Positions 2,875 through 33,713 of a DNA stretch of 64,000 bases are shown in pieces. Every line of letters begins with the position of its first letter. The stretch's first letter is position 1. Position numbers and translations under genes: made by a program. The notes under the pieces were generated by a model, which saw only the letters and a list, made by a program, of their open reading frames with translations, was not told where the DNA came from and searched no databases. This DNA comes from a virus: IMG/VR virus record IMGVR_UViG_3300000176_000001; one strand, written 5' to 3'.

Positions 2875-3137
2875 TACTTTGTTACCTTCTTCTTCGTAAC
2901 TCTCTTAGGCTTAACAGGAGTAGGAGAGGCTTGTACAGCTTTCTTTCTGCCTCTCTTAGGCTTAACTGGCTCTTCTACGGCTTCAATAACAGGCTCAGGC
3001 GCAGGTGCAACTTCAGGTTCCTTAGGTTGCTCTGGCTCAGCCTTTACAGTCTCTTTAACACTCATTAGACGAGTTAGACCCCATCCAGCTAGTGCTATAA
3101 ATGCTATAACTAACAGTATTTCAAAGTTCTCGTTCAT
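2874..3137 (-). CDS. Small membrane-anchored protein with basic tail
   Basis: Likely start MNENFEIL; one TM helix followed by Pro/Glu and Lys/Arg-rich segments. Confidence 0.6.
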   Translation of the reverse strand: MNENFEILLVIAFIALAGWGLTRLMSVKETVKAEPEQPKEPEVAPAPEPVIEAVEEPVKPKRGRKKAVQASPTPVKPKRVTKKKVTK

Positions 3138-3138
3138 T

Positions 3139-3765
3139 TCAATCTCCATCTTTAAATATTTTAATAGAACCATCTGGTTGGGCATGATATGCCACAAACT
3201 TAACACCAGGGTGTTCCTTCTTCATTGCTAGCAAGGCTCTCAAATTAGTCTTACTATCGTCATACATCATCACTTTTTTATATCCATGTTTCTGTATGTA
3301 GTCTTTGATTATTCTTGTCTTTGCTACTGCCGGTGACTCATTAGATTTTTGAATGTTACCAGCGCGATGGACATGAATGTCATCAATATCAATTCCTTGA
3401 TTCTTAAATGTCTTTAAGAACTTATCTTTATCATCAAAGTCAGATCTTGCAGTATTTATAATTACTTTGCTGTGTGGATTCTTCTTCACTGTACCATGTA
3501 TTCTCTTAACTTTGCTTATCATCTTGTGTATAGGATGTGACTCATCATGAAACTTTTTTGCAGACTTAAACTCTTTAAAGTCATACTTTTCACCTGGTTT
3601 TAATTTATAGTCATTAAACTGAGAGTTACTGAGATACTTAACTATCTTACCACTACTATTTCTAACACGTACTTTAGCTGTAGTGTGAAACATCGTGTCA
3701 TCTATGTCAAATACATGCAACGCTGGTTTCTTCTCTTCATCTAAGAATTGTGTAAATCTAATCAT
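3139..3765 (-). CDS. HAD-superfamily (polynucleotide-phosphatase-like) protein with capsid-targeting-like N-terminus
   Basis: FDIDDT motif I, NTARS motif II, MYDDSKTNL motif IV; likely start MIRFTQFLDE at 3765. Confidence 0.75.
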   Translation of the reverse strand: MIRFTQFLDEEKKPALHVFDIDDTMFHTTAKVRVRNSSGKIVKYLSNSQFNDYKLKPGEKYDFKEFKSAKKFHDESHPIHKMISKVKRIHGTVKKNPHSKVIINTARSDFDDKDKFLKTFKNQGIDIDDIHVHRAGNIQKSNESPAVAKTRIIKDYIQKHGYKKVMMYDDSKTNLRALLAMKKEHPGVKFVAYHAQPDGSIKIFKDGD

Positions 3766-4831: not shown

Positions 4832-6865
4832 TTATATTTTAGTACGCTTTGGCTTAGGCGGTTTCTTTGTTGCTAATGGCTTTTTTGCTGGTAAAGTCTT
4901 CTGCGTTGTTGCAGCTGGCTTAGTAGCAGCCGGTGTACCCCTTAGTTTATTGTTTTTCTTTTCCATCTCTTTCATGATCTCTCTGCGCTGTTGCTCTTTT
5001 CTAGCTTTCACACCAATAACGTCATCACGCTTGGCATATTTTCCAAGTGATATAGGATTAGTATCTTGATCGATCTTAATGTCCATACCCTGCTTAATAT
5101 CATTAAACAATTCCTTAGCATGCTCATCTTGCATATCTTTAGGAAGACCTTTCTTAAACTCACCAAACTTATTATTGATGGCATGTGATCTCTGTCTGGT
5201 AGCTGATACACTTGATGGATCCTCGGCATCAGCGTCAGGGTCTCTTGTTCCTGCTGAGACGACATCGATTCTCTTAAAGTTATACTCTTTACCATTATAT
5301 GTATCGAGTAACTTCTTAAACTCATCGACACGATCTGATCCAGCAACCATTATGAGATGATCGATGCCCTTGGCAGCTAGCTTCTTTGCTTGCTCAATAA
5401 CAGTAGGTGCATCTTTACCAGCAGCCTCTACATTAACACCAGGGAACATGCGCTTAGCGTGCTTTACCTTTTGTTCCGGTGTAAGTGGATTTTTCTCTGG
5501 ATCTTGTGTTCCTGAAAGCACAACGGTGTGACCGGCTTTTCTGTCTTTAGCTAACTCAAGTACCTTATCTGTAAGTACTTTATGACCAGCAGTAGGTGGA
5601 TTCATACGGCCAAATGCCATGACATGCGGGTTCTTAGTATCTGACTCCTCTGCAGGAGTAGCATCAGGGTCACCCTTACCACGATTATTAGCAAAATTAT
5701 TCTTACTGAACTCTGCACGATCCACGAGTTTTGTAGGTCTACCATTACGTGTAGCAACAAATCCTTCTGGCTTAACTTCTTTACCGCCGACGGTGTGCTT
5801 ATATGGTGTAGGGTTTCCTATAGCCTTGACAAGGACATCTTTAGCCTTTTGTAGATGACTGTGCATCTCAAAGAGTTTCTTAAACTCATCTTTCTTTTCT
5901 TTGGCATGGTCTATGACCTCGTCTGCAGCTGCAGCTATCTTCTGCTTGCCCTTGTCAGACTTAGCCTTATCCACATCTTTCTTTTTCTTAGCTTCAAGGA
6001 ACTGTATGTATCCTCCAATAGAAGGAATGGTGTCATCACGAACTGTCGAGTTGATATATGTCTTCATTGTTATCTCATGCTTCTCTAGATCATCTAGAGT
6101 TGCAGGATCCATCTCAGAGTATACTTTTGCAGCTTCTTCTTTATGCTTCTCAAACTCTTTCTGCATCGAGGAAGAGTAGCGTGTCTTAGACTGGTCAATC
6201 TGTGGATTGATTATATTGACATCAGGATCTTTCTGGAAAGCGTCCTGATCCACATCAAAACCTGCTTTCATGTCATCCAAGCTTTTACCTTCATACTTCG
6301 TGTGTACGACAAACCCCATTTCAGACTTATTAATCTTACGACCTTCAGGACCGTTTTTAGGAATAGAGTAAGTGATCGTATTAGGCGTAAAGCTATAATC
6401 GCTTGAGTTCTCATCTCCTGATAGATCTCCTTTATCATACATGAAGTCGCCTTGGTAGACTCCCTCAGGTTTACCCTTCTCATTCTTTGGCATGATCTTT
6501 GGTAAATGTTCTAGCGCGGCTTTAAGCTTAGCTACTAGACCAGGAGAGTGGCCATGATTGTTCTCAATGTCTTTAACTGTATAGTTGATCTTAGGCTCCT
6601 TGTTAAACACAGACTTGGATCCTACGAAGAATTTACCATTCTCTGGATTAATACCAAATACAATTGATGGAGATCCATCATACTTTGTCGTTATCGTAGA
6701 TCCACCAGCACCTGTCTTAAGAAAGTTATCGATGTCATCGAGAGTATCTGCTGCGTGTCCTACGCCTTCATGGCCACCATGGATTATGTGATCCTCGGCG
6801 TGCTCAAGATGCTTGAGCTTATCAACGTCTAAAGATTCAACTAAGAATGTTTTAAATGTTATCAT
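4832..6865 (-). CDS. Fusion of a ligase-like (KxDG) domain and a cytidyltransferase-like (HIGH-type) nucleotidyltransferase
   Basis: TTKYDGSP, EGFV and KLV ligase-like motifs; FGRMNPPTAGH and VAGSDRV cytidyltransferase motifs; MITFKTFLVE start. Confidence 0.75.
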   Translation of the reverse strand: MITFKTFLVESLDVDKLKHLEHAEDHIIHGGHEGVGHAADTLDDIDNFLKTGAGGSTITTKYDGSPSIVFGINPENGKFFVGSKSVFNKEPKINYTVKDIENNHGHSPGLVAKLKAALEHLPKIMPKNEKGKPEGVYQGDFMYDKGDLSGDENSSDYSFTPNTITYSIPKNGPEGRKINKSEMGFVVHTKYEGKSLDDMKAGFDVDQDAFQKDPDVNIINPQIDQSKTRYSSSMQKEFEKHKEEAAKVYSEMDPATLDDLEKHEITMKTYINSTVRDDTIPSIGGYIQFLEAKKKKDVDKAKSDKGKQKIAAAADEVIDHAKEKKDEFKKLFEMHSHLQKAKDVLVKAIGNPTPYKHTVGGKEVKPEGFVATRNGRPTKLVDRAEFSKNNFANNRGKGDPDATPAEESDTKNPHVMAFGRMNPPTAGHKVLTDKVLELAKDRKAGHTVVLSGTQDPEKNPLTPEQKVKHAKRMFPGVNVEAAGKDAPTVIEQAKKLAAKGIDHLIMVAGSDRVDEFKKLLDTYNGKEYNFKRIDVVSAGTRDPDADAEDPSSVSATRQRSHAINNKFGEFKKGLPKDMQDEHAKELFNDIKQGMDIKIDQDTNPISLGKYAKRDDVIGVKARKEQQRREIMKEMEKKNNKLRGTPAATKPAATTQKTLPAKKPLATKKPPKPKRTKI

Positions 6866-8073: not shown

Positions 8074-8093
8074 GTTTTACTATATTTATAATG

Positions 8094-8124
8094 AAAAAGG
8101 GGTGGACCCTATGGATCCACCCCT
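8094..8124 (-). terminator. Intrinsic terminator after the gp41 operon
   Basis: AGGGGTGGA/TCCACCCCT stem followed by a T-run on the minus strand. Confidence 0.75.
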
Positions 8125-8241
8125 CTCAGTGTTCTAAAAATAGTATGGCCGGGCGGAACCCCACCGTTTTCTCCCAGCTTTTCCTCGATTTTACGACTTG
8201 CCTCTTTGCTGTGCACAAGCAAAACATACCATTCTTTGCAG

Positions 8242-22660: not shown

Positions 22661-22750
22661 TGGCGGAGTGATGGCGGAATCGAACCCCTGGCCTTTCGGC
22701 TCCTACCGCTTTCAAGGCGGTGCTAGCATCCCCGGCTAGACATGCACTCC
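22661..22750 (-). tRNA. tRNA-Ser(TGA) with non-canonical Sec/allo-tRNA-like fold
   Basis: ACCGC-CTTGAAA-GCGGT; long variable arm; G73; extended acceptor and D stems. Confidence 0.8.
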
Positions 22751-32983: not shown

Positions 32984-33299
32984 TGGCATTTGTTTTGTTA
33001 GACCGGCATGAAGCCCGTCTGCTCCCCTACCATCTCCGTAGGTGCTTCACCAGCAGTGCCATACTGCCACAATTGTCTCTTCAAGGATACACCAGCTGTC
33101 TAACCTACACCGCACCTGCGACATTCGAAATAGCAGTATTTCCTTGGTGGGCCTACCTCTGTGCTTAGAATTGCGCGCACACTTCGGGCTCTGGTGTATC
33201 CATGAAGAGATAACTCTCTTCTGCCCTGCTGGAAACCACCTGCGTTTTTCGCCAGTACCAGCCAGGGGCTCCTCTTATACTCAGGGAGGAGCTGCCTGA
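32984..33299 (-). ncRNA. Large structured ncRNA candidate (~315 nt)
   Basis: Starts just behind an early promoter; nested long stems (GGTGGTTTCCAGCAG/CTGCTGGTGAAGCACC; 20-position stem 33076-33095/33191-33210); ends in CCA; no credible ORF. Confidence 0.65.
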
Positions 33300-33305
33300 A
33301 TTCTT

Positions 33306-33334
33306 AATATAAACCACTATCGAGGTTATGTACA
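33306..33334 (-). promoter_or_regulatory. Early promoter TGTACA-N17-TATATT
   Basis: Recurrent motif. Confidence 0.75.
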
Positions 33335-33337
33335 CAT

Positions 33338-33371
33338 AAAAAATAAGGGCAGGAATCTTTTTTCCTGCCCT
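33338..33371 (-). terminator. Intrinsic terminator of the putative attenuator
   Basis: AGGGCAGGAA-AAAAGA-TTCCTGCCCT followed by TATTTTTT. Confidence 0.85.
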
Positions 33372-33398
33372 AGTCAAACCCAACAATGTGAGATGTGA

Positions 33399-33506
33399 CT
33401 AGGCGGTACTACCCCATGAGCGTGCGTATTCGGTATTTCCGAATGTGCAGACTGTAATGAGTTTCGGTTGGTGTACCATGTGTAGTTCCTGAGTATAGTG
33501 TTTCAT
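33399..33506 (-). CDS. Putative leaderless leader peptide MKHYTQELHMVHQPKLITVCTFGNTEYARSWGSTA
   Basis: ATG 5 nt downstream of TATAAATA (33512-33519); stop codon lies in the CCTAGTCA/TGACTAGG antiterminator; not in the ORF track. Confidence 0.65.
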   Translation of the reverse strand: MKHYTQELHMVHQPKLITVCTFGNTEYARSWGSTA

Positions 33507-33524
33507 AGTTTTATTTATATAACT

Positions 33525-33713
33525 TTAACCTAAAATATCGACAATACGGCCATTTTTATCTACGGCACGCACACGAAATTCAGGTAAGTTACGCTTCAGA
33601 GACTGCATCTCTGACAGGATCCGCTGGGAGTTATTCTGGGTGGTGTGATACGTACGCCATACCCCAGACTTGTCCTGGGCTTGGATATCAACTTGGTCCA
33701 TGGTCATCTCCAT
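33525..33713 (-). CDS. Small hypothetical early protein
   Basis: GGAG RBS; early promoter at 33727-33755. Confidence 0.7.
   Translation of the reverse strand: MEMTMDQVDIQAQDKSGVWRTYHTTQNNSQRILSEMQSLKRNLPEFRVRAVDKNGRIVDILG

Follow-up and report, generated by a model that had tools for sequence, protein, structure and literature searches.

Does a short open reading frame (ORF) that uses almost every amino acid, placed at the head of a phage tRNA gene island, gauge translation capacity and admit transcription into the island on demand, or does it close the operon in front of the island? The question is raised by positions 33519 to 33338 (minus strand) of a stretch of 64,000 nucleotides (nt), referred to below as the window, from the viral record IMGVR_UViG_3300000176_000001, which is a portion of the genome of an uncultured T4-like phage. 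The ORF found there ends within an RNA hairpin, and the hairpin touches an intrinsic terminator. The initial annotation proposed an attenuator that senses a shortage of nearly any tRNA. Our best explanation, to which we assign a probability of roughly 0.45, is an operon end, formed by a terminal micro-gene, a spacer hairpin and a terminator that insulates the upstream unit. This ordinary explanation fits the observations at least as well as a gauge of translation capacity does.

For comparison, 72 loci from viral and metagenome contigs, mostly of freshwater lakes and with relatives stemming from samples of the Trout Bog type, were fetched with the conserved gene for a 62-amino-acid (62-aa) protein next to the element as an anchor. 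A homologous micro-ORF was found in three lineages of uncultured freshwater T4-like phages, namely the window together with loci L001, L002 and L014; the loci L017-L026 (the L017 group); and L039. The sequence facts reported in the initial annotation, that is, the motifs, the terminator and the composition of a 35-codon frame, all hold on the minus strand. An exact match to the T4-type late promoter motif, TATAAATA (33512-33519), lies 5 nt before the ATG at 33506, which opens a frame of 35 codons (33399-33506) with 28 distinct sense codons and 19 of the 20 amino acids, Asp being the missing one. The transcript had been considered leaderless and devoid of a Shine-Dalgarno (SD) sequence, and this is correct for the first ATG. 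However, a conserved second ATG at 33479 is led by the SD-like CAGGAA (33486-33491), 6 nt ahead of it. In each of the three lineages a motif AGG(A/T/C) is observed about 6-10 nt ahead of the corresponding start, whereas the first ATG is missing in L017-19 (where it reads ATA) and in L039; among the other relatives it is located at a variable distance, 4 to 6 nt, from the promoter motif. Since the SD and the second ATG are conserved and the first ATG is not, the conserved start is probably the second ATG, and the putative gene, 33479-33399, is probably not leaderless. It consists of 26 codons followed by TAG and keeps all 19 amino acids.

The micro-ORF bears the marks of a small protein-coding gene, which are a ribosome-binding site, an open frame and purifying selection, the last of them seen in a small data set. 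The homologues in L017, L020, L025, L026 and L039 span 26-28 codons, and the frame is open in all eight distinct sequences. The lineages preserve the frame, the SD and the position of the stop although their neighbouring 62-aa proteins are only 63-81% identical. In the peptide alignment Met1, one Asn, one Tyr and the Trp that precedes the stop by five codons never vary, and Lys6 and Cys11 are mostly kept. Within the L017 group, again a small data set, the ratio of nonsynonymous to synonymous polymorphism (pN/pS) is 0.35-0.6. Variable sites in this group are distributed over the three codon positions as 6/4/5 in codons 2-10 and as 5/6/10, with a lean towards the third position, in codons 11-28, and the constraint lies mainly in the latter part. 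The initial annotation asked whether codon diversity and stem covariation are conserved and the peptide sequence is not; the peptide core is conserved.

The peptide is confined to this family. Cultured phages yielded nothing useful when they were searched at the nucleotide and protein level with the region, the peptides and the 62-aa neighbour, and an exhaustive search of 1.8 billion proteins with a hidden Markov model profile retrieved no relatives beyond the family except a single match. The matching protein, P0004, is a 1161-aa collagen/CBM5_12 repeat protein (hhalign probability of 87% over 17 columns) with four to five near-identical repeats at residues ~350-760, where a 17-residue stretch resembles the core of the micro-ORF product (Gly-Glu-Tyr-x-Pro ... 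Trp-Glu). This match is probably due to chance, the alternative being that it hints at the origin of the peptide. The micro-ORF family is single-copy in the nearest complete relative. We also considered the micro-ORF as a relic of the 5' end of a winged-helix (wHTH) gene located in the island, and rejected this candidate, local alignment scores being equal to those of shuffled sequences.

Two helices follow the frame in the RNA. Hairpin 1 (33369-33403) has a stem of 8 base pairs (bp) with an inner helix and carries the stop codon in its 5' arm. The inverted repeat containing the TAG was confirmed as exact, CCTAGTCA (33403-33396) being fully complementary to TGACTAGG (33376-33369). The intrinsic terminator (33346-33371) is a 10-bp stem with six G-C pairs and a 6-nt loop, followed at once by the U-tract TATTTTTT (33338-33345). 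Its energy is -17.3 kcal/mol, and its core pairs have a probability of 1.0, an equilibrium value that is uninformative in itself, being ~1.0 for the E. coli trpL control too. The first three nt of the terminator (AGG) also belong to hairpin 1. The whole late transcript folds better than its shuffles (z = -4.7, and z = -3.6 for the 3' 83 nt). In the minimum free energy structure (-49.5 kcal/mol) hairpin 1, with 6 bp and the inner helix, and the terminator, with 9 bp, stand side by side, and forcing the 8-bp hairpin 1 leaves a 7-bp terminator at -49.2 kcal/mol. Only the three basal pairs of the terminator are contested, with probabilities of 0.19, 0.53 and 0.76. The two-bulge extension of hairpin 1 into 8 of the 10 bases of the terminator 5' arm, described in the initial annotation, does appear when the 3' part is folded alone, but its gain relative to the 8-bp helix is 1.2 kcal/mol or less. 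When a ribosome is modelled as covering the last five codons, the basal pairs of the terminator reach 0.8, 1.0 and 1.0. The energy of alternative pairing of the arm in the nascent RNA weakens at the same time from -7.8 to -0.6 kcal/mol, on a scale that is poorly calibrated (trpL yields -1.9 kcal/mol at most, and -1.2 to -1.4 at codons 11-12) and serves for comparison within the family only.

The extent of the overlap differs between the lineages. The two helices have 3 nt in common in the window, a single nt in the L017 group and, in L039, between 4 and 7 of the 9 bases of the arm. The equivalent hairpin of the L017 group has 13 bp, and that of L039 has 11 bp. Because the 13-bp hairpin of the L017 group shares a single nt with the terminator, the hairpin is conserved even where it is unable to sequester the terminator arm. 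Pairing is preserved through two-sided changes: at stem positions 4-7 the lineages differ in both strands of the helix, and an A-U pair is swapped to U-A in hairpin 1 of L026, within the L017 group. The stems were compared rank by rank from single folds, since the MAFFT alignment shifts the 3' arms of two lineages by one column and makes RNAalifold undercount covarying pairs and overlook the terminator. Upstream of hairpin 1 the structure differs from lineage to lineage. Candidate 1:2 helices are formed between the SD region and codons 23-25 in the window and between codons 2-4 and the hairpin 5' arm in L039, and the L017 group has no equivalent, so that this feature is not conserved.

The genes behind the terminator would not have to depend on read-through, as a promoter is predicted between the module and these genes. 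It is of the sigma70 (early) type, TGTACA-17-TATATT (33306-33334), and lies directly behind the terminator, as the initial annotation had cautioned. A promoter of this type at most 20 nt from the terminator was found in most relatives checked and in all three lineages (for example TTGACT-17-TATACT and TTGACA-17-TATTCT); the promoter scan detected none in L025, which is a short locus, or in L026. The late motif TATAAATA occurs 16 times in the window, compared with about 5 expected, and 13 of these copies are on the minus strand. Most relatives, whether or not they have the micro-ORF, carry either TATAAATA or CTAAATA at the equivalent position after the 62-aa gene, the L017 group having CTAAATA only and no exact TATAAATA. 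Five copies of TATAAATA are on the coding strand inside the tRNA island itself (19575, 26118, 28726, 29206 and 30835, minus strand), and because of these internal copies, late transcription of most tRNAs is suggested to be independent of the island head.

We favour the operon end because the SD and the second ATG are conserved and the frame is open with a pN/pS of 0.35-0.6; because the two helices coexist and the hairpin is kept at an overlap of 1 nt; and because of the spacer of 27-35 nt between stop codon and terminator (27 nt in the window), the early promoter behind it, the five internal late motifs and the lack of codon matching described below. The stretch would be the end of an upstream unit that comprises gp45, gp44, gp62, RegA and three small genes. 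The micro-gene would be transcribed from upstream promoters as well as from the late promoter at 33519-33512, and translated from the SD-led ATG at 33479. Hairpin 1, which holds the stop codon and would keep it 27 nt away from the terminator, may serve both as a spacer and as a stabiliser of the 3' end. The strong terminator would then end transcription, and the island would restart from its own early promoter, 12 nt beyond the terminator, and from the internal late promoters. A ribosome finishing the ORF would at most tighten two or three basal terminator pairs, and we infer that no regulatory switch operates here. Terminators of ordinary operon ends are located ~30 nt or more past the last stop codon, which is similar to the spacing observed here, and in E. 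coli a terminating ribosome stops repressing the terminator at a spacing of 27-35 nt (PMC4824070). In this locus a promoter comes directly after the terminator. Unlike at ordinary operon ends, the spacer here consists of a conserved hairpin, with the stop codon inside it and bases in common with the terminator, and the last gene is a near-pangram of 26 codons.

The distribution of the module was followed through the collected loci. In 33 of them the wHTH gene comes directly after the 62-aa gene, without tRNA island and without micro-ORF. Short ORF, hairpin, terminator and promoter are found ahead of the island in 14 loci (8 distinct sequences from the three lineages). Another 7 loci, from two lineages, have the island, and their late-promoter motif leads to the first non-coding RNA (ncRNA) without micro-ORF, terminator or extra promoter. 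The remaining 19 loci are of other types or have too little downstream sequence. The inspection of relatives called for in the initial annotation thus recovers ORF, hairpin and terminator in three lineages, but also two island-bearing lineages without the module. In L003, L004, L005, L015 and L016, and likewise in L046 and L047, micro-ORF, hairpin, terminator and promoter are absent as one block, with TATAAATA ~30-60 nt before the ncRNA hairpin; therefore gain or loss of the module takes place as one unit of ~230 nt. Among cultured phages, the best match, Stenotrophomonas phage DLP_6, has no such module at its island head. In the same phage (KU682439.2, L091) a sequence resembling transfer-messenger RNA, with a frame ending in ...ANDDSFAPMAIAA, was seen at ~1045-1260 of the locus, just upstream of the island of 37 tRNA genes, where the record annotates no feature.

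Several of these observations weigh against an ordinary operon end. The module is present in 14 of the 21 island-bearing loci and in none of the 33 loci with a directly following wHTH gene, an association that could be explained by shared ancestry. Both the type of stop (TAG, TGA or TAA) and the stem sequence change, yet the stop codon is always found within hairpin 1 or at its base. Hairpin 1 always has G residues in common with the terminator base (a CAGGG junction), and in L039 it covers 4-7 of the 9 terminator arm bases at -11 kcal/mol. Finally, 19 different amino acids among 26 residues are not what an ordinary small protein would predict, and the peptide has no nameable function and no homologues outside the family.

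These points lead to the strongest competing explanation, possible but in our opinion doubtful, which is a ribosome-dependent attenuator that gauges translation capacity through many amino acids, similar to that of whiB7. In this model, the leader of 26 codons with its SD would be part of the transcripts from the late promoter and from the upstream genes. Once a ribosome arrived at the last codons or the stop, it would melt hairpin 1, the full 10-bp terminator would form, and transcription would end. A stall at almost any earlier codon would leave hairpin 1 and its weak extension holding the basal terminator bases, and some polymerases would then read into the ncRNAs, tRNA-His, tRNA-Tyr and the wHTH gene, until a second terminator at 32341-32316 (minus strand), ~1 kilobase (kb) beyond the first. 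This second terminator had also been pointed out at the outset and was found again. The near-complete amino-acid set would make the leader sensitive to a shortage of many charged tRNAs, as in the whiB7 upstream ORF (uORF). On this doubtful reading the near-pangram would be a test message, on which ribosomes slowed at almost any codon, by starvation or by a host nuclease that cleaves tRNAs, would keep the stop-codon hairpin folded, thereby weakening the terminator and permitting late and upstream transcription to continue into the first kb of the island.

The precedent for such a mechanism is a real one. The M. smegmatis whiB7 uORF contains 19 of the 20 amino acids, and removal of its single Trp codon or of its three His codons abolishes the response to the respective starvation (PMC10274678); single codons can therefore sense a shortage, and the premise that leaders of this kind respond to one amino acid is outdated. 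The mycobacterial whiB7/wblC uORF resembles the micro-ORF in its near-complete repertoire and has terminator read-through as its output. It differs in its widely varying, alanine-rich sequence and in controlling a transcription factor, whereas here we find a conserved peptide core, a weak or absent antiterminator, and a cargo of ncRNAs and tRNAs with its own promoter. Other uORFs, toiL of the E. coli topAI-yjhQ operon (PMC12121999) and bmrB of bmrB-bmrCD (PMC4191407), sense stalls at several positions or general translation stress; toiL acts via occlusion of a ribosome-binding site and Rho, and both control bacterial protein genes without reliance on amino-acid diversity.

The amino-acid diversity on which the attenuator would depend is above background. 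With 19 amino acids the 35-codon frame belongs to the top 1.2% of in-frame windows, and this is about what the best of 146 short ATG ORFs in the window should reach; two of the 146 reach 19 amino acids. The 26-codon frame keeps all 19, with P ~6e-4 against windows and 8e-4 against stop-free nucleotide shuffles, and the homologues have 17-19 amino acids in 26-28 codons (P 0.0015-0.066). For these two reasons the elevated diversity is real for the family, and the broad repertoire typical of the whiB7 uORF is found with P of 6e-4 to 0.024 per lineage. Much of it is carried by the shared core, in which 12-14 common positions hold 11-13 different residues. Once the core is fixed, the lineage-specific positions are weakly, or marginally, above random draws (P 0.02, 0.26, 0.06, 0.09 and 0.24).

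The choice of codons does not follow the tRNA genes of the phage. The initial count, according to which 23 of the 28 phage tRNAs have a cognate codon in the 35-codon ORF, holds under wobble rules and falls to 18 under strict pairing. In the 26-codon ORF, 21 of the 26 codons are read by phage tRNAs, compared with 77% genome-wide, so there is no enrichment (P 0.43). The same ORF samples 21 of the 28 tRNAs (P 0.005) because of its residue diversity. Moreover, Asp is missing in five of the seven variants despite a phage-encoded tRNA-Asp.

The geometry of the RNA also argues against the attenuator. The enterobacterial leaders trpL, hisL, pheL, leuL and thrL resemble the locus in having a short ORF whose stop lies beside RNA able to pair with the terminator 5' arm, such that a ribosome at the stop favours the terminator, and an SD-led putative ORF of 26 codons ending 27 nt before a terminator is indeed present here. 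Nevertheless, several features do not support the likening to trp/his-type attenuators made in the initial annotation. Those leaders have tandem regulatory codons, and the window ORF has none. In ribosome-mediated attenuators the antiterminator and terminator share 6-11 nt, and in T-boxes ~7 (PMC3064811), whereas 1-3 nt are shared here (4-7 in one lineage), the helices coexist, a promoter separates the module from the downstream genes, and there is no match to an Rfam leader. In a footprint model the E. coli trpL control acted as a genuine switch, having 5-6 of 7 arm bases sequestered exclusively when the A site was at codons 11-12, adjacent to the Trp codons; in the same model the window had 3 of 10 arm bases sequestered at most positions, with no codon-specific switch. 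An overlap of 3 nt can suffice, as shown by the B. subtilis trp system, in which likewise three bases are shared at the terminator base, but there it goes with a weak terminator that needs the TRAP protein, and strong terminators are said to need more overlap (PMC3064811). The terminator of the window is strong, with a 10-bp stem and a good U-tract, and is associated with no known protein factor.

The proposal of a pan-tRNA attenuator is therefore left with points on both sides. It is supported by the fact that three lineages retain the ORF, the hairpin with the stop codon and the terminator in front of the island, and that pairing survives two-sided changes; by the diversity; by the strengthening of the basal pairs under a modelled ribosome; and by L039, where an antiterminator of -11 kcal/mol together with a start-proximal helix completes the full four-segment layout. 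Against it stand the small overlap of coexisting helices (an extension of at most 1.2 kcal/mol, and a single shared nt in the L017 group), the promoter in front of the genes to be controlled, a regulated span of ~1 kb only in an island with its own late promoters, the conserved peptide core, the absence of a conserved upstream 1:2 helix and of codon bias towards phage tRNAs, and the two island-bearing lineages that lack the module.

A further parallel is provided by Caulobacter phage phiCbK (JX100813.1, 46500-52800; L089), in which a short ORF precedes each annotated terminator in front of the tRNA blocks (locus positions 1582-1667, 3041-3270 and 4840-5003). In the clearest case the ORF is leaderless, has 32 codons with many for Phe, Val, Ile and Gln, and is followed by a terminator and then by a block of tRNA genes for these four amino acids. 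A sigma70-type -10 box precedes the start of this ORF by a few nt, the 3' arm of the terminator recurs as a copy within the ORF, and no promoter intervenes. The phiCbK loci share with the window a short ORF and terminator directly before tRNA genes, and no sequence similarity to the micro-ORF family was seen. Judged by its layout, the phiCbK candidate is more canonical as an attenuator than that of the window.

The remaining explanations appear much weaker than the operon end. It is improbable that the ~165-nt late RNA, running from the late promoter to the terminator, is a regulatory or dual-function small RNA in which the frame is secondary. The succession of promoter, ~165 nt of RNA and terminator, the folding z-scores given above, and the comparison of the window with L002, in which the 70-nt hairpin-terminator part and the 27 nt ahead of the second ATG are unchanged while the 78-nt ORF body has six changes, are consistent with such an RNA. 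They are opposed by the variable structure upstream of hairpin 1, by the conservation of SD, start, frame length and Trp with pN/pS below 1, by the lack of any Rfam family within 33338-33527 at E up to 1, and by the L017 group, which is without an exact TATAAATA. Slightly less probable still is an arrest peptide whose C-terminal core (Asn-Gly-x-Tyr ... Trp) would hold the ribosome at the stop on some signal and in this way decide how hairpin 1 folds and what becomes of the transcript. The invariant register from Trp to stop in three lineages, the conserved core beside a variable N-terminus, and the stop codon within hairpin 1 would agree with this; no similarity to known arrest peptides and no stalling evidence was found, and a functional small protein fits the same conservation. 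Least probable of all is a chance open frame in an intergenic spacer ahead of an ordinary terminator. In its favour, gene callers leave the micro-ORF unnamed, two of the 146 short ORFs reach 19 amino acids, and 8-bp hairpins are common (100 in the window versus 25-47 in shuffles); it is opposed by the retention of the frame, the SD and the position of the stop between lineages, and by a pN/pS below 1.

The genomic setting, all on the minus strand, is as follows. The sliding clamp (gp45; 36768-36082) and the clamp loader (gp44; 36070-35129) are followed by a 124-aa ORF in the position of gp62 (35132-34758) and by RegA (34715-34317; Pfam Translat_reg, 4.5e-43). Three small ORFs come after RegA, and the last of them encodes the 62-aa protein (33713-33525). 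Behind the module, structured non-coding DNA and 28 tRNA genes identified by ARAGORN occupy 32974-19278, with the wHTH gene (HTH_39) behind tRNA-Tyr. The closest cultured-phage match to the clamp loader in the collection searched has 62% identity at best, and a 164-kb IMG/VR contig (G001) is 96% identical across the region.

Some additional features of the window were observed. The first ncRNA of the island is opened by a UUCG-loop hairpin and then TTCATGGATAC (33190-33215, minus strand), and the same arrangement occurs behind the promoters of L003, L017, L020, L026, L039 and L046; the hairpin is present in nearly every island-bearing relative. The next ~100 nt are nearly identical between the window lineage and the L003-type phages, whose neighbouring protein is 81% identical, and have no Rfam match. 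The UUCG-hairpin element is probably a conserved, undescribed phage ncRNA. No tRNA-Ser is among the 28 ARAGORN tRNAs, and at 22665-22750 (minus strand), where ARAGORN calls nothing, a sub-threshold Rfam match of the tRNA-Sec type (35 bits, cut-off 47) was obtained; it may represent a long-arm tRNA such as tRNA-Ser. At 8083-8230 (minus strand) we noted another terminator (about -22.7 kcal/mol) with a small hairpin abutting its stem and a 33-codon ORF (8227-8126, minus strand) whose TGA adjoins the hairpin-terminator junction (CTGAGAGGGG); TATAAATA lies directly behind that terminator, at 8090-8083.

Current discussion of phage tRNA genes sees in them a remedy for codon mismatch and a response to host nucleases that cleave tRNAs. 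Our literature search found no published attenuator ahead of phage tRNA genes. If the module does sense translation, it would mean that phages monitor decoding capacity and adjust their own supply of tRNAs and ncRNAs. It would be a phage gauge that follows the logic of the whiB7 uORF but controls tRNA genes, and it would provide a sensor of general translation stress that is both compact and portable. If it is not a sensor, a stop-codon hairpin that touches a terminator need not be a switch, and the locus would reveal, with its start codon corrected, an unannotated conserved family of genes of 26-28 codons and unusual composition.

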